A stretch of DNA of 14,441 nt from a virus (Duplodnaviria > Heunggongvirae > Uroviricota > Caudoviricetes): the IMG/VR virus record IMGVR_UViG_2531839554_000008, one strand, 5' to 3'. Positions 473-7,330 of this stretch are shown here, piece by piece. The position numbers and the translations under genes were made by a program. The stretch's first letter is position 1. Each line of letters opens with the position of its first letter. Under the pieces are notes generated by a model, which saw nothing but the letters and a program-made list of their open reading frames with translations, ran no database searches and was not told where the DNA came from.

Positions 473-494
473 ATAGATGATAGTTATTTATCAG
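473..494. repeat. candidate attL core (ATAGATGATAGTTATTTATCAG)
   Basis: 20 of 22 positions identical to 11304-11325; identical 11-mer ATGATAGTTAT at 477-487 and 11308-11318; outermost repeat pair bracketing the island. Confidence 0.4.
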
Positions 495-497
495 TTA

Positions 498-640
498 GTG
501 TTCGCGGGTGTTCGCCGTGGTGTATCTGTCTCATTTATTGCTATGATTATAAAGGAAAATTTCGTTTTTCTTGTTCGCCCTTGTTCGTCGCTGTTTGCCC
601 TTGTACGATGCACGGTGTAGTCAATGGTGTAGTTAATTTT
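498..640. repeat. left arm: phased (G/T)TGTTCG repeats plus tandem GGTGTAGT(C/T)AAT pair (candidate integrase/RDF arm-type sites)
   Basis: GTGTTCGC at 498 and 508; TTGTTCG at 571 and 581 (10-bp phasing); ACGGTGTAGTCAATGGTGTAGTTAATTTT at 612-640 matches 11211-11239 at 28 of 29 positions. Confidence 0.55.
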
Positions 641-660
641 GATGACCGGAAATACGAAAC

Positions 661-1899
661 ATGAGCAGGGCAATTCATAGACTTAGCGACACTCTTTTAC
701 GAAAATTAAGCGGATCACCAACCACAAAAAACACCTTTTTTAATGATGGTGGCAACCTTAGCGTAAGGCATTCAACCAATGGCCTGTTAACTTGGTATTT
801 CACTTACAGGGCCGGAACTGGCAGGCAGGTATCACCGGAACGCCTGAGACTGGGCAACTATCCCGATCTGAGCCTGAAAGCAGCCAGAGAAAAAGCGGCA
901 CAGTGTCGCGCCTGGCTGGCTGAGGGGAAAAATCCGCGCTATGAACTTAATCATGCTGTACAGGACGCGTTAGCCCCCGTGACGGTTAAGGAAGCGCTCA
1001 CTTACTGGCTTGAATCGTACGCAAAGGAAAAGCGCACTGACTACGAATCACTGAAAAGCCGGATCAATAAACACATAATTAGCCAGATTGGCGCTATGCC
1101 ACTGGAAAAATGCGAGCTACGGCACTGGTTGGCCTGTTTTGACCAGATGGCAAAGCGAAGCCCAGTATCTGCCGGATTTTTGCTACAGGTATGCAAACAG
1201 GCGCTTAAGTACTGCCGAAAACGACGATACGCAATCAGCAACGTTCTTGATGATATGGTTGTCGGTGATGTGGGAAAAAAAGCAGAAGTGAGCGAGCGCG
1301 TACTAACAAACAAGGAGCTTGGGGAATTACTCCGCGCCCTGGATGACAAAATATTCCCGCCATACTACAGCGCCCTAATTCGCCTCCTGATTGTTTTTGG
1401 ATGCCGTACCACTGAGCTAAGGCGCTCTGAGGTGCAGGAGTGGGATTTTAAAGAAATGCTCTGGACAGTACCGAAGGAGCACAGCAAAACGAAGGTCGCC
1501 ATATTCAGGCCAATACCGGAAAGCATTTTGCCGTTCGTCACGCAACTGGTGGAGCAGAACAGACACACGGGCTTATTGCTTGGTGAACTGAAAGGACAAT
1601 CTTCGGTAGCAGAGTACGGAAGAACAGCGCACAGACGAATTAATCAAGCCCCTTGGACGTTACACGATATCCGGCACACATTTACAACCATGCTGAACGA
1701 TTTAGGCGTGGATCCGCATATTGTCGAGCAGCTTACAGCCCACCAGATGCCAGGGATGCAACGAGTCTATAACCACTCCCGCTATCTTGATGCAAAACGT
1801 GATGCTCTTAATCTATGGGTAGACCGTCTCGAGCTTCTCCAGAACAATGATGAAAAAATCGTTGTTATGACCCCACGAATTTACACCCAAAATTCTTGA
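661..1899 (+). CDS. int: tyrosine site-specific integrase, P4-type
   Basis: 412 aa. N-terminal arm-binding-type region (LSD..LRKL...WYFTYRAGTGRQV...LGNYPDLSLKAAREKA); C-terminal catalytic signature LHDIRHTF ... VYNHSRY (H-x-x-R and Tyr nucleophile). Adjacent to the island end. Confidence 0.93.
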   Translation: MSRAIHRLSDTLLRKLSGSPTTKNTFFNDGGNLSVRHSTNGLLTWYFTYRAGTGRQVSPERLRLGNYPDLSLKAAREKAAQCRAWLAEGKNPRYELNHAVQDALAPVTVKEALTYWLESYAKEKRTDYESLKSRINKHIISQIGAMPLEKCELRHWLACFDQMAKRSPVSAGFLLQVCKQALKYCRKRRYAISNVLDDMVVGDVGKKAEVSERVLTNKELGELLRALDDKIFPPYYSALIRLLIVFGCRTTELRRSEVQEWDFKEMLWTVPKEHSKTKVAIFRPIPESILPFVTQLVEQNRHTGLLLGELKGQSSVAEYGRTAHRRINQAPWTLHDIRHTFTTMLNDLGVDPHIVEQLTAHQMPGMQRVYNHSRYLDAKRDALNLWVDRLELLQNNDEKIVVMTPRIYTQNS

Positions 1900-2308
1900 C
1901 AAATTACGGCTGTTTTTTCTTTAAGAGATTACAGCCGTGAATAAATCGACGAATATCGACAAAGTTCGTTGTGTTTTTATTTGTCAACCATCGAAAAAAT
2001 TGAAATGTCTTCTTCTGAATTCTTATTCTCTGTTTTTTGATCGTTCCCGCAATCGATGGTTTATCTGTTTGTTTTTAATGAGATAATTCAAACGTAATGC
2101 CAAATGACGACATTTTTTGTTGCGTCGCTTAAAAACTCGTGACACGATTTTAAACACTAACGAGCTTCTACGAACCTTAGCGAACAAAGCCTTTAGCAAG
2201 GTTGTGTTTTTAATTTAAGAGGTGAAAAAGAATCTAAGTAATATCCGATCTCATATATCTACAGCTAAGAGAAAAGTTTATATACGTAATTTTTATGTAG
2301 GTTTTTGT

Positions 2309-2518
2309 ATGCGTGAAATAAATGAAGATCGCGTAATCCGTGAGGATGAATGTCGTAAGTTAACTGGAGTGTGTCGCACTACACGCTACGAACTGGAGAA
2401 AAAAGGATGCTTTCCGTCACGTCTTAATCTGGGTGGTCGCTCTGTAGGTTGGCTGCTGTCCGAGGTTATGGAATGGGTTAAAAGCCGGGATCGCATTAAT
2501 TCAGGCAAGGCAGCGTAA
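2309..2518 (+). CDS. alpA: AlpA-family transcriptional regulator / excision activator (small HTH protein)
   Basis: 69 aa MREINEDRVIREDECRKLTGVCRTTRYELEKKGCFPSRLNLGGRSVGWLLSEVMEWV... matches the AlpA pattern (R..TG.s..t.Y......FP......G.sVGW...E...W). In-frame ATG at 2309 chosen over the track GTG at 2222. Lies downstream of int as in P4-like elements and PICIs. Confidence 0.85.
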   Translation: MREINEDRVIREDECRKLTGVCRTTRYELEKKGCFPSRLNLGGRSVGWLLSEVMEWVKSRDRINSGKAA

Positions 2519-2532
2519 AGGGGAGTATATGA

Positions 2533-2565
2533 CACATAAAACAAAGGCGACCGGAGGCGGTCGCC
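2533..2565 (-). terminator. rho-independent terminator, minus strand
   Basis: 8-bp GC-rich stem GGCGACCG/CGGTCGCC (2546-2565) with a 4-nt loop, followed on the minus strand by UUUGUUUUAU (2545-2536). No U-tract on the plus side. Confidence 0.55.
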
Positions 2566-2656
2566 AATGGGAAAACACTAAACATAAGCCCGAACATCAT
2601 AGCGATTTGCTGGCTGGTGGGCAATGTGATCAGTGTGCTGGCTTGCTGGTGGGCTA

Positions 2657-2836
2657 TCAACCTTTTGGCTCGATACCGCGCTGTTGTAATTCTTTGCGGA
2701 TTATTCGCTTTATCCAGGCAGCAAGAGAATCATCGCCGTCCTGTTGTTGTGCTTTTTCCATCTTTTCCCGTAAGTCAGGATCTAAACGGAACTGGAACGG
2801 AGGATTACCACGCCTTTCGTTTTTGTGTGTTGACAC
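2657..2836 (-). CDS. small ribbon-helix-helix-like DNA-binding protein (putative repressor), 59 aa, not in the ORF track
   Basis: Minus-strand ORF GTG(2836)...TGA(2657): (M)STHKNERRGNPPFQFRLDPDLREKMEKAQQQDGDDSLAAWIKRIIRKELQQRGIEPKG. The pattern strand FQFRL, helix PDLREKMEKA, turn, helix AAWIKRIIRKEL fits Arc/CopG-type RHH. GGGGTG lies 8 nt upstream of the GTG; followed by the minus-strand terminator at 2533-2565. Plus-strand ORFs here (2529..2942, 2617..2841) are Cys-rich and implausible. Confidence 0.45.
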   Translation of the reverse strand: MSTHKNERRGNPPFQFRLDPDLREKMEKAQQQDGDDSLAAWIKRIIRKELQQRGIEPKG

Positions 2837-2857
2837 GTTAATTACACCCCATGTAAT
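2830..2857 (+). promoter_or_regulatory. sigma70-type promoter (TTGACA-N16-TGTAAT) for the icd-like-to-primase operon
   Basis: Perfect -35 TTGACA at 2830-2835, 16-bp spacer, -10 TGTAAT at 2852-2857; first downstream gene starts at 2970. Confidence 0.45.
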
Positions 2858-2865
2858 GTATTTAT

Positions 2866-2884
2866 GTGTAATGACACATTACAC
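2866..2884. promoter_or_regulatory. candidate operator: palindrome GTGTAATG-aca-CATTACAC
   Basis: Perfect 8-bp inverted repeat with 3-bp spacer just downstream of the -10; the half-site TGTAATG also overlaps the -10 (2852-2858). Sits between the divergent RHH ORF and the plus-strand operon. Confidence 0.4.
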
Positions 2885-2969
2885 ACAATCGGCGCAAAAA
2901 GCAAAGCCCCGCAAGTGTCGTTACCACTGGCAGGGCTTATAACCACAAACCGTTATGAGAGGTAGTTTT

Positions 2970-3167
2970 ATGGCTGTAAGACAGCATACCCCACACCTAG
3001 CGCACACACAAACGGCCTTTGTGTGGCGTTTTCTGGCACTGAGTGCCGGAGAATCTCAAATCGTCCACGTAACCGCCTGGACAGAACGCGAAGCGCGTAA
3101 CCGTTGTCCGTCCGGTTGTGTCGCTGTATTCGCTGCCCGTATTCGTCAGGGGGTGTGCCATGATTAA
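2970..3167 (+). CDS. Icd-like / Ash-family small protein (tentative)
   Basis: 65 aa MAVRQHTPHLAHTQTAFVWRFLALSAGESQIVHVTAWTEREARNR...FAARIRQ. The motif pattern W-R-F-x-A ... T-A-x-x-E-x-E-A-R ... F-A-A-R resembles Icd-like proteins of P4-type elements, from memory only. GAGAGGTAG RBS 4 nt upstream of ATG 2970. Confidence 0.5.
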   Translation: MAVRQHTPHLAHTQTAFVWRFLALSAGESQIVHVTAWTEREARNRCPSGCVAVFAARIRQGVCHD

Positions 3168-3471
3168 CCTGTCACTTACTGACCTTAACCGCATTCAGTT
3201 TCGTGAGAAATTTACCGGGCAGCTACTGGTCAATGTGGATAAAGGCCGCGTGGTGTGTAATTACCACCTGCCAGATGAAGCAATTGTCGCAACAAGGGAA
3301 TCATTACAGGAACTCGCAGACAAAGCGCATAAGCACGCCACCAGCGAAACAGAATATGCCGGGGCTTTCGTTCCTCACTCACTGGCTGTTATGCAATTTA
3401 GTGCTGATATGGCGCTGAATGAGGCAGGCAAAATTCTTACCGCAGATATTCAAGGGGTGCACCATGCATGA
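3160..3471 (+). CDS. hypothetical protein (103 aa)
   Basis: ORF MINLSLTDLNRIQFREKF...; AGGGGG RBS upstream of ATG 3160; overlaps the previous stop by 8 nt and the next start (ATGCATGA) in operon style. Confidence 0.6.
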   Translation: MINLSLTDLNRIQFREKFTGQLLVNVDKGRVVCNYHLPDEAIVATRESLQELADKAHKHATSETEYAGAFVPHSLAVMQFSADMALNEAGKILTADIQGVHHA

Positions 3472-3691
3472 TGACCGTTATTTTAAATCAATGAGCCATG
3501 CAGAAAATGCACTGACTAACAGTGAATGCTTGCGGCAAATATTGCTTATTTGGCTTGATGGTTTAAGTGATGCGCCGGAAGATGAACGTGAATCTAATCT
3601 TGCTGGTGCGTTTATTTCATTACTCGATACGGTAATCGTCGAATTAAATAAAGCGATCGAAATTCACGATAAAAAAATAAACGCGGAATAA
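3464..3691 (+). CDS. hypothetical protein (75 aa)
   Basis: ORF MHDDRYFKSMSHAENALTNSECLRQILLIWLDGLSDAPEDE...; start overlaps the upstream stop (3469-3471); AAGGGG upstream. Confidence 0.55.
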   Translation: MHDDRYFKSMSHAENALTNSECLRQILLIWLDGLSDAPEDERESNLAGAFISLLDTVIVELNKAIEIHDKKINAE

Positions 3692-3696
3692 AAACC

Positions 3697-3984
3697 ATGA
3701 AAAATAAAAATTCTGGCTTTACCGCCAGCGGCCCCGCTCGTCCTGAATTTATGAACGGCGATATTTACCGCGATAAATATGGCGGCATGGTAACGATTAA
3801 AGGCGTGGCAGAACGGCGCATCACTTACCGCCGTGATGGCTACGAATATGACTGCGTGATGCCTGTTTATCAGTTCCGGCGTGATTTCACGCTGGTGGGC
3901 CATCGTAAAGCCGTAAATCAGAAACGTGCAGCAAGCTATATCCGCAAAATCCGTGAAATGCTGGTCGCAGGGGGTAAGAAATGA
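3697..3984 (+). CDS. hypothetical protein (95 aa)
   Basis: ORF MKNKNSGFTASGPARPEFMNGDIYRDKYGG...; stop overlaps the primase ATG (ATGA at 3981-3984); weak RBS. Confidence 0.55.
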   Translation: MKNKNSGFTASGPARPEFMNGDIYRDKYGGMVTIKGVAERRITYRRDGYEYDCVMPVYQFRRDFTLVGHRKAVNQKRAASYIRKIREMLVAGGKK

Positions 3985-5735
3985 AACTGGCACCGAACGT
4001 AAAAAAACAACCACGCGGAATAAAACACAAAGACACAGAGGTAATTATTTTCGCGGGTAGTGATGCGTGGGCACATGCAAAACAGTGGCAGGAGCAGGAC
4101 GGCCCCGCATCCGGCGATGATGTGCCGCCTGTGTGGCTTGGGCCAAATCAGCTTGCCGAACTTGATGCGCTGAAAATTGTTCCGGATGGGAAAAAACGCG
4201 TAAGGCTGTACCAGGCCGGAGAACTGGATTTAGTGGAGACCAAAAAGATTGGTCAGAAGCTGGCGGCGGCAGATATTCAGGATGCGAATTTTTACCCTGA
4301 AGGAACGCACGGTCAGGAGGTGGAAAACTGGCGCGAATATCTGGCCCGTGAGCGCCAGAATCTTTCTGATGGTCTGGTGATTGAGCTTCCGGTAACGCAA
4401 AAGGCGCAACTTTCGCAGATGGCAGACAGTGAGCGCGCACTGCTGCTGGCTGATCGCTTTGATGGCGTTTGTGTGCATCCGGAAAGTGAAATCGTCCACG
4501 TCTGGCGCGGCGGGGGATGGTGTCCGGTCAGCACAATGGAACTGAGTCGCGAAATGGTGGCGATTTATTCAGAACATAAGGCCACTTTCAGCAAGCGCGT
4601 AATCAGTAACGCCGTTGAAGCGTTAAAAGTTATTGCCGAACCAATGGGCGAGCCGTCCGGTGATTTGCTGCCGTTCGCCAATGGTGCGCTTGACCTGAAA
4701 ACGGGGGAATTTTCCCCGCACTCGCCGGAGAACTGGATCACCACGCACAACGGTATTGAATACACGCCGCCAGTACCAGGGGAGAATATCCGCGACAACG
4801 CGCCAAACTTTCATAAATGGCTTGATCACGCTGCCGGAAAAGATCCGGGCAAGATGATGCGTATATGCGCCGCGCTATACATGATTATGGCGAACCGGTA
4901 CGACTGGCAGATGTTTATTGAGGCCACCGGAGACGGCGGGAGCGGCAAGAGCACTTTCACGCACATAGCCAGCCTTCTGGCAGGGAAACAGAACACCGTA
5001 AGCGCTGAGATGACATCGCTTGATGATGCTGGTGGGCGTGCGCAGGTTGTCGGGAGTCGGCTTATTGTCCTGGCAGACCAGCCGAAATATACAGGCGAAG
5101 GCACGGGCATCAAGAAAATCACGGGCGGCGACCCCGTGGAAATTAACCCGAAATATGAGAAGCGTTTCACAGCGGTAATCAGGGCGGTTGTGCTGGCAAC
5201 CAATAATAACCCGATGATATTCACCGAACGGGCCGGAGGTGTGGCACGTCGTCGCGTGATTTTCCGTTTCGACAATATCGTCAGTGAGGCCGAAAAAGAC
5301 AGGGAGCTACCGGAAAAGATTGCGGCTGAAATCCCCGTCATTATCCGCCGATTACTGGCGAACTTTGCAGACCCTGAAAAGGCGCGGGCTTTACTACTGG
5401 AACAGCGTGACGGTGATGAAGCACTGGCAATAAAGCAGCAGACGGATCCGGTTATTGAATTTTGCCAGTTCCTGAATTTTCTGGAGGAAGCACGTGGCCT
5501 GATGATGGGCGGCGGTGGCGATTCCGTGAAGTACACAACCAGGAACAGCCTTTACCGCGTCTATCTGGCGTTTATGGCGTACGCAGGCAGGACCAAACCG
5601 CTAAACGTAAATGATTTTGGCAAAGCCATGAAGCCCGCCGCAAAAGTTTACGGACATGAATATATTACGCGGAAAGTTAAGGGGGTAACGCAGACTAACG
5701 CAATAACAACCGACGATTGCGACGCATTTTTATAA
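3981..5735 (+). CDS. replication initiation protein, P4-family primase C-terminal / SF3-helicase-like P-loop NTPase (PICI pri-rep-like)
   Basis: 584 aa; Walker A GDGGSGKST; upstream motif LPFANGALDLKTGEFSPHSPENWITTHNGIEYTP typical of the phage/plasmid primase P4-family C-terminal domain; Walker B-like RLIVLADQP; AGGGGG RBS. Followed by an iteron-rich region. Confidence 0.88.
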   Translation: MKLAPNVKKQPRGIKHKDTEVIIFAGSDAWAHAKQWQEQDGPASGDDVPPVWLGPNQLAELDALKIVPDGKKRVRLYQAGELDLVETKKIGQKLAAADIQDANFYPEGTHGQEVENWREYLARERQNLSDGLVIELPVTQKAQLSQMADSERALLLADRFDGVCVHPESEIVHVWRGGGWCPVSTMELSREMVAIYSEHKATFSKRVISNAVEALKVIAEPMGEPSGDLLPFANGALDLKTGEFSPHSPENWITTHNGIEYTPPVPGENIRDNAPNFHKWLDHAAGKDPGKMMRICAALYMIMANRYDWQMFIEATGDGGSGKSTFTHIASLLAGKQNTVSAEMTSLDDAGGRAQVVGSRLIVLADQPKYTGEGTGIKKITGGDPVEINPKYEKRFTAVIRAVVLATNNNPMIFTERAGGVARRRVIFRFDNIVSEAEKDRELPEKIAAEIPVIIRRLLANFADPEKARALLLEQRDGDEALAIKQQTDPVIEFCQFLNFLEEARGLMMGGGGDSVKYTTRNSLYRVYLAFMAYAGRTKPLNVNDFGKAMKPAAKVYGHEYITRKVKGVTQTNAITTDDCDAFL

Positions 5736-5744
5736 TTTTTTGCA

Positions 5745-5980
5745 GTGGCTGTCTACCCTGTCTACCTGAGCGATAAAAGTTGTTTTGATTCAGTGTGTTA
5801 ATTTGGGTAGATAGCTTTTTTTTACTGTCTACACACTATCTACCCTGTCTACCTGTTTTGGTAGCCAGTCGGAGGGATGGGTAGACATCATGTAGACAGA
5901 GATTTTTTACTGTCTACCACCATGAAACCCGCGTCATTACTGGCCTGAGCATCCACCAGGTAGATAAGGTAGACAAGGTG
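5745..5980. repeat. iteron array, candidate replication origin
   Basis: At least 11 copies of GTCTACC / GGTAGAC and close variants in both orientations (e.g. 5751, 5760, 5847, 5912 forward; 5880, 5968 reverse); 20-bp unit CTRTCTACCCTGTCTACCTG at 5749-5768 and 5836-5855; AT-rich runs between. Immediately 3-prime of the primase/helicase gene. Confidence 0.6.
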
Positions 5981-6023
5981 GGGGTATCTCCAAAACTTTT
6001 TAAACGAGGGGGTAAAAACAAAA

Positions 6024-6281
6024 ATGCACACATCAGGAAAACTTAACAATCAGAAGAAGCAACATAGCCGCCCCATTGACCTTACAGAGCACTGGCTGAG
6101 GGTGGCGATAAAAATCATCGACCGCAACGCGGGAGAAGGATACGCGAAAGCACATCCTGAACTGATAAGCGCATTCATGACCACGGCGGCAGCAAACTTT
6201 GCCACGCTGACAGAACGGGAGATTGCCGAAGCGGAACAGGTGACAACCATCAACGTTAAAACCGGAGAGCAGACAGCATGA
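6024..6281 (+). CDS. hypothetical protein (85 aa)
   Basis: ORF MHTSGKLNNQKKQHSRPIDLTEHWLRVAIKIID...; GAGGGGG RBS 10 nt upstream; stop overlaps the ssb start. Confidence 0.6.
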   Translation: MHTSGKLNNQKKQHSRPIDLTEHWLRVAIKIIDRNAGEGYAKAHPELISAFMTTAAANFATLTEREIAEAEQVTTINVKTGEQTA

Positions 6282-6700
6282 CAGCACAGATAGCAGCTTA
6301 CGGGCGGCTGGTGGCTGACCCGCAGTTAAAGACCACCAGCAAAGGGACACAAATGACGATGGCGAGTATGGCGGTCCCCCTTCCGTGCAGCCAGGCAGAT
6401 GACGGACAGGCGACGATGTGGTTATCCGTGATAGCGTTTGGCAGACAGGCCGAAGCGCTGGCAAAGCACCGCAAGGGGGAACTCCTGAGCGTGGCTGGTA
6501 ACATGCAGGTGAACCAGTGGACAGGCCAGAACGGGGAAACGCGGCAGGGCTGGCAGGTTATCGCAGACAGTGTAATCAGTGCCAGAACGGCGCGACCAGG
6601 TGGTAAAAAAGGCCAACAGGGGCAGGCCACTGACGCACTGAACAGGGCAAAACAACAGGCGGGGAATGATGATCCGTACGGGGATAACATACCGTTTTAA
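6278..6700 (+). CDS. ssb: single-stranded DNA-binding protein (short phage/plasmid-type SSB)
   Basis: 140 aa; OB-fold region aligns by eye with E. coli SSB (YGRLVADPQLKTT..., W-x-x-V-x-x-FG-x-x-AE, KG..L.V.G.....WT.Q.G..R); C-terminal acidic tip ...DDPYGDNIPF like SSB DDDIPF; GGAGAG RBS. Confidence 0.8.
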   Translation: MTAQIAAYGRLVADPQLKTTSKGTQMTMASMAVPLPCSQADDGQATMWLSVIAFGRQAEALAKHRKGELLSVAGNMQVNQWTGQNGETRQGWQVIADSVISARTARPGGKKGQQGQATDALNRAKQQAGNDDPYGDNIPF

Positions 6701-6715
6701 GCAACGAGTAACAGA

Positions 6716-6738
6716 AGCTGGAGCAATCCGGCTTTTTT
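6716..6738 (+). terminator. rho-independent terminator after ssb
   Basis: Stem GCUGGA/UCCGGC (one G-U pair) with GCAA tetraloop, followed by UUUUUU (6733-6738). Confidence 0.6.
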
Positions 6739-6812
6739 ACGGGTCCTCCCGGTGTAGTGACCTGCCACGGGGCGGGAGCGTCGCGGAAAAAGGCTGGTTT
6801 TTGCATTTTCAT
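6732..6812. repeat. ~81-bp direct repeat, copy 1 (CTTTTTTACGGGTCCTCCCGGTGTAGTGACCTGCCACGGGGCGGGAGCG...TTGCATTTTCAT)
   Basis: Near-identical (about 2 mismatches) to 9266-9346; both copies begin at the U-tract of a terminator. Confidence 0.8.
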
Positions 6813-6998
6813 GGCGGCGGCAGCATGTGTGATAATTTATTGATAATTAAAAATTATTTCTGTTTTCACCTGTACAATATTTTTTTCTCCCTGTCATTAG
6901 ACTAGTTTGCAATTAATTGAAATATATAAATAAATTGGTTTTTCACCTGCCAGATGGAGTTGCCTGTGCAAAACGTGTTCAGATGGCGGGATATTTAT

Positions 6999-7021
6999 GC
7001 CGGATTCTCTCCGGCTTTTTT
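6999..7021 (+). terminator. rho-independent terminator in the ssb-to-capsid gap
   Basis: Stem GCCGGA/TCCGGC with loop TTCTC, followed by TTTTTT (7016-7021). Confidence 0.5.
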
Positions 7022-7123
7022 GTGTCTGAATCTGATTAATCTATTTTTATGATAGAAATATGTTTATCTACCACTTTTATCGATCAATAATGCGCGCAGT
7101 TTAGTCAGTAAGAGGAAGTTACT

Positions 7124-7330
7124 GTGAATTGTATTAACGACCTGAACACAGGCGAGGTAAAAGGTGGTTCCGTTCATCTGGATGCGCAGACCGTTATGCG
7201 CCTTAAGCAGTACAGGATCGACCATATAAATCATCATCCTAACAAACCATTACCAGGTGTGGCGCAGATTGTCAGACATGCCGTAAACACCTGGCTTAAT
7301 CAGAATGGTTTTGCATCGGTGGGGGAATAA
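7124..7330 (+). CDS. hypothetical small protein (68 aa), first gene of the capsid operon
   Basis: GTG start with AGAGGAAG RBS 6 nt upstream; MNCINDLNTGEVKGGSVHLDAQTVMRLKQYRI...; stop overlaps the ATG of the capsid gene (TAATG). Possibly a small DNA-binding protein; not assignable. Confidence 0.55.
   Translation: MNCINDLNTGEVKGGSVHLDAQTVMRLKQYRIDHINHHPNKPLPGVAQIVRHAVNTWLNQNGFASVGE

Follow-up and report, generated by a model that had tools for sequence, protein, structure and literature searches.

A dense array of short repeats lies directly downstream of the replication gene (rep) in a 14,441-nt stretch of DNA that is recorded as viral (Caudoviricetes; IMG/VR record IMGVR_UViG_2531839554_000008) and is called the window below. 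The question raised by this locus is whether the array is the site at which its element starts to replicate, and by what kind of initiator it would be read. Several uropathogenic E. coli strains, e.g. strain F11, carry the window in their chromosome with 100% identity, and within it an island of 10.8 kb (477-11318) sits between cspD and clpS. The features of this island, a phage-inducible chromosomal island (PICI), that bear on the question are the following.

477 to 487, plus strand: attL core ATGATAGTTAT, left end of the PICI; exact match to the published cspD-clpS att core
661 to 1899, plus strand: tyrosine integrase (Pfam Phage_integrase and Arm-DNA-bind_3; RefSeq annotation)
2309 to 2518, plus strand: AlpA-family regulator, PICI activator (Pfam Phage_AlpA, E = 9e-16)
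3981 to 5735, plus strand: Rep, 584 aa, SF3 helicase with a predicted C-terminal origin-binding domain (Pfam D5_N, DUF5906, i.e. the SF3 helicase core, and Pox_D5 only)
5442 to 5708, plus strand: part of rep for the predicted winged-helix origin-binding domain, residues 488-576 (phmmer against PDB 1KA8)
5736 to 6023: whole putative ori interval from rep to the next ORF, 288 nt (equal in length and 88% identical to the EcCICFT073 interval)
6024 to 6281, plus strand: conserved 85-aa ORF downstream of the putative ori (annotated CDS; also follows the ori in EcCICFT073)
6278 to 6700, plus strand: island SSB, single-strand DNA-binding protein (Pfam SSB, E = 1e-16)
11308 to 11318, plus strand: attR core ATGATAGTTAT, right end of the PICI; second copy of the 11-nt att core

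Only these two copies of the 11-nt core are present in the window, against 0.01 expected. Gene order to the left of the array is cspD, yljB, integrase, AlpA, an Icd-like protein, small ORFs, a DUF4222 protein and Rep; to the right it is the 85-aa ORF (no match in Pfam or NCBIfam), SSB, a ClpP-protease/capsid fusion, a DUF1441 protein, small ORFs, clpS and clpA. The island thus shows the features by which PICIs are recognised: integrase, AlpA and Rep (plus SSB) all on the plus strand, att sites of its own and a length of ~10 kb. Its prevalence is 400 of 5426 complete E. coli genomes (~7%), chromosomal in every case. The same att core is given in Table S1 of Fillol-Salom et al. 2018 (PMC6092414) for EcCIIHE3034 (10.5 kb) and EcCI18098 (10.8 kb), both at cspD-clpS. 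The island of the window certainly belongs to this EcCI18098/EcCIIHE3034 class, a match at the level of the class, EcCI18098 having been published without an accession. Both islands, that of IHE3034 and that of 18098, have a gene for a TerS homolog (PMC6092414), and the DUF1441 gene of the window island may be its counterpart. The 18098 island, the best match to that of the window, showed only low-frequency transfer, with its resident prophages (PMC6092414).

The array itself had been described, in the preliminary description of this locus, as at least 11 copies of a 7-bp motif in both orientations, arranged as a duplicated 20-bp unit and inverted pairs among AT-rich runs. All of these elements are borne out, with twelve copies found in 5751-5974.

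5751 plus, 5760 plus, 5806 minus, 5827 plus, 5838 plus and 5847 plus: iterons 1 to 6 (7-mer starts)
5860 minus (GGCTACC, degenerate), 5880 minus, 5891 minus, 5912 plus, 5959 minus and 5968 minus: iterons 7 to 12 (7-mer starts)
5769 to 5805: AT-rich spacer, candidate unwinding element (70% AT; nearest-neighbour stability)
5806 to 5833: inverted iteron pair flanking a T8 run (GGTAGATAGCTTTTTTTTACTGTCTACA); direct-repeat partner at 5892-5917; low duplex stability

The first iteron begins 16 nt past the rep stop codon (stop 5735, iteron 5751), so that the placement of the array directly 3' of the replication gene also stands. Exact GTCTACC is found seven times in the whole window, six of these in 5751-5974, with a chance expectation of 0.79 for the whole window (dinucleotide-preserving shuffles). 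When one mismatch is allowed, 12 of the 31 matches in the window fall inside these 224 bp, six of them exact and six with one mismatch, in both orientations, where ~0.30-0.35 copies are expected by chance (Poisson P ~1e-15). The degenerate form RTCTACM gives 11 of its 14 matches in the array, with 3.7 expected for the whole window. The remaining three (at 1818, 2257 and 7066) are therefore at chance level, and the lone related copy upstream of the capsid operon, which had been placed at 7067-7074, carries no signal; it is in fact ATCTACC at 7066-7072, which places TATCTACC at 7065-7072. No second iteron cluster is found in the window or the island by either the RTCTACM or the one-mismatch scan.

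Larger repeats are built from the iterons. The 20-bp unit occurs at 5749-5768 and 5836-5855 with 95% identity and, inverted, at 5957-5975; a second duplicated block, GTAGAYAG-T-run-ACTGTCTAC, occupies 5807-5832 and 5892-5917. T-runs lie between inverted sites at 5813-5826 and 5898-5911. The least stable DNA of the window is near 6800-6950, 9350 and 10850, rather than in the candidate unwinding element, which is only 70% AT. Folded as single-stranded DNA the interval scores z = -2.1, and the predicted stems are simply oppositely oriented iteron pairs, so the fold brings no independent support. The interval 5736-6023 contains no DnaA box with up to one mismatch, and tRNA and Rfam scans return no match in or near the array.

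The protein encoded next to the array is of a kind that could read it. Rep residues 488-576 match the origin-binding domain of P4 alpha (PDB 1KA8) with E = 1e-6 at full length and 9e-8 for the domain alone, and residues 195-432 match SaPI5 PriRep (PDB 7OLA) with E = 8e-14. P4 alpha combines a primase of DnaG type with an SF3 helicase and, at the C-terminus, a DNA-binding domain of winged-helix fold (PMC2777425). Rep of the window is annotated as 'DNA primase family protein', and the P4-family 'primase C-terminal' domain of NCBIfam scores slightly under its cutoff. By Pfam, neither the Zn-ribbon (Zn_Ribbon_Prim) nor Toprim (Toprim_3) is found in it, whereas both are found in P4 alpha and in a Morganella relative, and ~200 residues of the primase region are missing from the window Rep in the alignment. 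Of the earlier name 'primase/helicase', then, the helicase half holds, with an SF3 core and an origin-binding domain, and the primase half does not; given the absence of the Zn_Ribbon_Prim and Toprim_3 domains, the name is a misnomer on present evidence.

Experimental data on the locus can be garnered from a closely related island. In EcCICFT073 (NC_004431, 1377749-1389210) the local order is DUF4222 protein, 584-aa Rep, a 288-nt gap, 85-aa ORF and SSB. The interval is 288 nt in both islands and 88% identical, with nearly all iterons unchanged and the differences in spacers; site 7 of the window array (GGCTACC) is missing in EcCICFT073, and the T-run at 5898-5911 is replaced there. Rep of the window and EcCICFT073 Pri-Rep are 92% identical, with a single substitution past residue 480, i.e. 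residues 480-584 are almost invariant. The two islands are thus alike in TCTACC iterons, in gene order and in the position of the array between pri-rep and the 85-aa ORF. They differ in insertion site (ycfD-phoQ for EcCICFT073, cspD-clpS for the window) and in the late module, which comprises a ClpP-protease/capsid fusion and DUF1441 in the window and a capsid plus decoration protein in EcCICFT073.

Fillol-Salom et al. placed pri-ori, pri-delta-ori and delta-pri-ori of EcCICFT073 on a temperature-sensitive vector; growth into colonies at 44 C required both the gene and the 'ori site' (PMC6092414). With the ori deleted, colony numbers are given as 'significantly reduced', not as abolished, and the fragment of rep plus interval alone drove plasmid replication (PMC6092414). 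Figure 2a of that paper is presented as giving maps and iteron sequences of several E. coli PICIs (PMC6092414). The published primers were mapped onto the CFT073 sequence (locus L003 in our set) for plasmids pJP2027 (pri-ori) and pJP2028 (pri-delta-ori). The forward primer lies at 5198-5218 of that locus; of the reverse primers, the one for delta-ori ends at 7000, 4 nt past the rep stop, and the one for pri-ori at 7307, 23 nt inside the next ORF. Primer rep-2cNotI is unmatched as printed and matches once one G is restored, so its printed sequence probably carries a one-base slip. From these end points, the 'ori' that was tested is exactly the interval equivalent to 5736-6023 of the window.

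The iterons of the window are organised in two arms, and two further blocks accompany them.

5749 to 5855: arm A, six iterons as [+ +] AT-rich [-] T-run [+ + +]; reverse complement of the six-site unit
5860 to 5975: arm B, six iterons as [- - -] T-run [+] spacer [- -]; layout of P4 ori1
5929 to 5943, plus strand: non-iteron block CGCGTCATTACTGGC within the spacer of arm B, nearly invariant among 49 distinct TCTACC-type arrays
5992 to 6001, plus strand: AAAACTTTTT motif after the last iteron pair; probable part of the origin, outside the limits drawn for the array in the preliminary description

Read in reverse, the spacings of arm A are 9/11/21/46/9, and these match both arm B (20/11/21/47/9) and P4 ori1 (~10/11/21/44/10). 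From these spacings the putative origin consists of two inverted copies of one unit, [- - -][+][- -], with the dyad near 5857. The type-1 repeats of the P4 ori (GenBank NC_001609) are at 9310 minus, 9320 minus, 9331 minus, 9353 plus, 9396 minus and 9406 minus. P4 9310-9413 aligns in register with arm B, with arm A once this is reverse-complemented, and equally with the arms found in the Klebsiella and Serratia relatives. The block at 5929-5943, also given as CGCGYCATTACTGG, has the core YCATTACTG, which recurs in arrays of another iteron type (L074 and L075) and in P4 ori1 at 9340-9348. The AAAACTTTTT motif is present in 70 of 88 fetched loci, always directly past the terminal [- -] pair, Morganella and P4 crr included. 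It is single-copy in every carrier except one Morganella locus (L006), which has a second copy elsewhere, and in arrays whose arms are swapped it goes along with arm B. Alongside the iterons, the conserved non-iteron blocks of the origin are AAAACTTTTT and CATTACTGG.

The presence of AAAACTTTTT at P4 crr touches on a different reading of the locus, that of an accessory cis element which Rep binds and replication needs while initiation takes place elsewhere in the island. P4 crr has the same position, directly 3' of alpha as the window array is directly 3' of rep, and the same kind of iteron; it is annotated as required in cis and as distinct from the ori, and it has AAAACTTTTT in common with the window array. 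The orientation of its unit, [+ +] AT [- - -][+], differs from that of the window and ori1, and both arms of the window follow the ori1 layout. Since the window offers no other iteron cluster at which Rep could initiate, with the RTCTACM matches outside the array at chance level, and since the rep-plus-interval fragment of EcCICFT073 replicated a plasmid by itself (PMC6092414), an accessory role of this kind is very unlikely, and an origin remains the preferred reading.

Whether the same anatomy is kept among relatives was followed through Rep. Rep scans provided 3 loci from reference genomes, the Klebsiella satellite vB_KppS-Ant (induced) and 80 IMG/VR loci; the IMG/VR scan used a Rep alignment, while a scan of genome contigs with Rep alone yielded three loci only. 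Rep identity among these relatives extends from 97% down to 40%. Each of the 86 rep loci analysed has an iteron array immediately 3' of the gene (67 distinct versions), and the arrays can be grouped into four types by iteron sequence.

TCTACC: 68 loci, including the window and EcCICFT073
TGTTCAC(C): 4 loci, namely Serratia, vB_KppS-Ant (Klebsiella) and L074/L075
TGTTCAT: 7 loci, Morganella and the group of L076
GTATAC: 7 loci, the group of L077

Across all four types the layout is kept as [+ +], ~45 nt of AT-rich DNA, [-], T-run, [+ + +], [- -] [+], ~46 nt, [- -], and the AT-rich spacer has a constant length (~45 nt) and the same position in relatives with other iteron sequences. Variation is local: the inner part of the first arm is [- -][+ +] in 24 distinct arrays, and inner arm A sites differ between relatives. 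Arm B precedes arm A in four distinct TCTACC-type arrays (loci L068-L071); the order is permuted in L074 and L075 too, as judged by eye, where automated classification made no call. Among the 49 distinct TCTACC-type arrays, conservation is 0.81 for iteron columns vs 0.69 for spacer columns (Mann-Whitney P = 4e-6), a difference treated as supporting evidence only, since the alignment is gappy (444 columns from 300-nt inputs) and its columns are not independent.

Such conservation bears on the possibility that the array has no present function, being a decayed relic or a cluster of repeats that arose by chance. One degenerate site and the variable inner sites of arm A would fit decay. An enrichment at P ~1e-15, iterons conserved above spacers in the 49 distinct arrays and a layout kept across four iteron specificities, down to 40% Rep identity, all speak against it, and a relic or chance cluster is the least probable of the readings considered here.

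The array might also consist of operator sites, bound by Rep or another regulator, for a promoter of the 85-aa ORF/ssb operon, with no origin present. It does lie directly 5' of a conserved ORF, and on the opposite strand the iteron contains TAGACA, which resembles a -35 hexamer; three promoter-like matches are found vs 0.9 expected. All three are made of the iteron itself and lie on the minus strand, facing away from the genes downstream. Moreover, loci with swapped arms or with another gene downstream keep the array, and operator sites would leave the deletion result for the orthologous ori unexplained. Because the promoter-like matches face the wrong way and are built of iterons, and because the array persists beside other downstream genes, operator sites are extremely unlikely to be the explanation.

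If Rep reads the iterons, a change of iteron would be accompanied by a change in Rep. Within a group of closely related 587-aa Reps, 54 alignment columns are variable, and only columns 559 (T vs A/N), 562 (V vs M) and 587 separate TGTTCAT from GTATAC arrays; all three are within the C-terminal domain. As far as comparison of sequences goes, this covariation is the pattern that a Rep-iteron recognition pair predicts, in a small sample of few and phylogenetically non-independent lineages. The covarying positions align with ...HTKQGIQTN... of P4 alpha and ...KVKGVTQTN... of the window. In the usual winged-helix topology the terminal beta-hairpin (the wing) is found at such a stretch, and the covarying stretch is probably this wing. 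A single-sequence AlphaFold model of Rep 470-584 reached a pLDDT of 55 and was discarded; as that model was too poor, the placement of the wing rests on the 1KA8 alignment and the usual topology.

Array statistics, orthology to EcCICFT073, Rep domain homology, covariation, the conservation footprint and the P4 ori1 register together indicate that the array is very probably the vegetative replication origin of a Gram-negative PICI. That it would be an origin of PICI type, as had been proposed, is in line with the PICI gene content, the att repeats, the cspD-clpS site and the orthologous EcCICFT073 interval. The companion proposal, that a P4-alpha-type protein would bind the iterons, agrees with the likeness of Rep 488-576 to 1KA8, an iteron two bases away from that of P4 and the ori1 layout.

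A mechanism for this origin can be outlined as follows. A helper phage would switch AlpA on, whereupon the island would excise and Rep be expressed. The C-terminal winged helix of Rep is predicted to recognise the 7-8-bp iteron (T)GTCTACC at twelve sites. Adjacent sites follow each other at 9-11 bp, close to one turn of the helix, so that the bound domains would lie on the same side of the DNA and could there seed the SF3 helicase ring. The inverted arms would then load rings in opposite orientations. Opposed ring loading is established for other SF3 helicases whose origins have dyad symmetry, e.g. SV40 large T antigen and papillomavirus E1. Melting would begin in the AT-rich spacer 5769-5805 or in the T-runs, and the opened strands would be coated by the SSB of the island, whose gene lies just downstream. 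Priming would presumably fall to the host primase, since Rep has no recognisable primase domain.

A broader joint reading is somewhat favoured. Under it, the six-iteron unit of P4 ori1 would be present in the enterobacterial PICI ori as an inverted doublet, and the same winged-helix domain would read both; with P4 crr as third member, the two would make up a single evolving family. Iteron specificity in this family would have switched at least four times through changes in a short segment close to the C-terminus of Rep, which is probably the wing, and the arms can be permuted as A-B or B-A. If true, this origin family would be a natural series of matched Rep/iteron pairs for orthogonal satellite replicons.

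The origin as such is already known and belongs to a published, experimentally supported class, real but ordinary, given that an orthologous origin was tested in 2018 and the island type of the window is listed in the founding paper. What is added is detail: base-level anatomy, the inverted doublet that corresponds to the P4 ori1 unit, Rep/iteron variants, permutable arms and the missing primase domain. The value is thus one of annotation, not discovery, and a known mechanism is refined with none newly revealed. The comparative by-products may help builders of PICI-based delivery vectors as well as studies of satellite incompatibility.

Among known systems, theta plasmid origins of the RepA/pi/RepE type resemble the array in having multiple initiator-binding repeats beside an AT-rich region. 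Their iterons are ~17-22 bp long and mostly direct, their initiator is not a helicase and DnaA boxes are usual. With repeats of 7-8 bp in both orientations, an SF3 helicase as the putative initiator and no DnaA box in the interval, a theta-type iteron origin was rejected.

The likeness to SaPI origins is closer. In SaPIs, Rep is a helicase that loads itself; its C-terminal winged helix binds 6-12 iterons immediately past the 3' end of rep, which form opposed sets around an AT-rich centre with at least two per side (PMC9371898). The window likewise has iterons 3' of rep, opposed sets, an AT-rich region and an SF3 Rep with a predicted winged helix at its C-terminus. Detectable sequence similarity is limited to the helicase core, and the likeness is otherwise functional and architectural; the iteron sequences are unrelated, the host phylum is another one, and regulation is by Stl in SaPIs and by AlpA in the window.

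The closest correspondence is with P4. The window Rep and P4 alpha have in common a D5_N/SF3 helicase and a C-terminal winged-helix origin-binding domain, while the Zn-ribbon and Toprim primase of alpha is lacking in Rep. The iteron of the window, TGTCTACC, is not that of P4, differing from the type I iteron TGTTCACC at two adjacent bases, whereas the Klebsiella vB_KppS-Ant and Serratia relatives do have TGTTCAC(C). In P4 the ori1 and crr sites are ~4.5 kb apart; in the window a single compact locus holds two ori1-like units, fused and inverted.

The origin, twelve GTCTACC-type iterons in two arms directly 3' of rep, is not arranged in one fixed order among its relatives. Within the first 330 nt past the rep stop, the IMG/VR rep loci L068-L071 carry the arms reversed, arm B being followed after ~90 nt by arm A, and the same order, arm B before arm A, was judged by eye in L074 and L075. 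Because its two six-site arms are found in opposite order in these loci, the origin acts as a pair of modules that can be permuted.

Two motifs other than the iterons belong to this arrangement, located in the window and in relatives, including satellite phage P4 (L008), as follows (strand where noted).

Window 5992-6001: AAAACTTTTT motif, after the terminal inverted iteron pair
L008 (P4) 4472-4481, minus strand: AAAACTTTTT, in the P4 cis element crr
Window 5929-5943: CGCGTCATTACTGGC non-iteron block
L074/L075 3322-3330: YCATTACTG, core of CGCGTCATTACTGGC, in arrays with a different iteron
L008 (P4) 9340-9348: YCATTACTG, core of CGCGTCATTACTGGC, within the P4 cis element ori1

Of the 88 loci, 70 have the first motif behind the terminal inverted iteron pair, P4 crr among them, and each carrying locus has one copy, with the Morganella locus (L006) as sole exception. 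Where the arm order is swapped, the motif travels with arm B, so it is part of the origin and not of the translation signals of the downstream gene. Within TCTACC-type arrays, the second block is conserved to the same degree as the iterons; a single occurrence in the window, against 0.22 expected, is not significant taken alone.

Iteron type can also be compared with the Rep protein. The near-identical Reps of L076-L088 divide into those with TGTTCAT-type and those with GTATAC-type arrays, and only columns 559 (T versus A/N), 562 (V versus M) and the last residue tell the two apart. All of these discriminating residues are inside the C-terminal origin-binding domain, and from the alignment the split at columns 559 and 562 is a candidate natural specificity switch worth testing.

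The window rep gene (3981-5735), whose product is annotated as 'DNA primase family protein', yielded only D5_N, SF3 helicase and Pox_D5/winged-helix domains. P4 alpha and the Morganella relative carry Zn-ribbon and Toprim primase domains, whereas both are absent from the window Rep in the domain search. For the related PICI EcCICFT073, primer EcCICFT073-rep-2cNotI is printed as GCGCACATCAGAAAACTTAA, one G short of the CFT073 genome sequence GCGCACATCAGGAAAACTTAA (PMC6092414, supplementary primer table), probably a typographical slip.

Three further features lie downstream, the last outside the island.

6800-7100: AT-rich stretch, flanked by ssb and by the gene for the protease/capsid fusion
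7064-7237, minus strand: 57-aa ORF in this AT-rich region
14250-14277 and 14310-14337: a pair of CRISPR-DR4 repeats separated by a single 32-nt spacer

Nowhere in the window is the AT content higher than in the first (GC 0.34-0.36 over 6800-7100), and its part 6800-6950 is among the least stable DNA of the window. The late module is probably controlled from this stretch, in which the lone iteron also sits. The CRISPR-DR4 pair, between clpA and tRNA-Ser, is at the site where E. coli has its small clpA-infA CRISPR remnant, which is type I-F associated.

Strain Combat2C1 (L001) carries an island inserted at the att site that the window island also occupies, and the two islands are identical over 501 nt (window 5600-6100) covering the rep 3' end and the origin. 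Their late modules differ: that of Combat2C1 (L001 10517-12551) is EcCICFT073-like, with separate capsid and decoration genes, whereas that of the window (7330-9243) has a ClpP-protease/capsid fusion. The same rep 3'/origin stretch beside another late module points to an exchange of modules among PICIs having one replicon in common.
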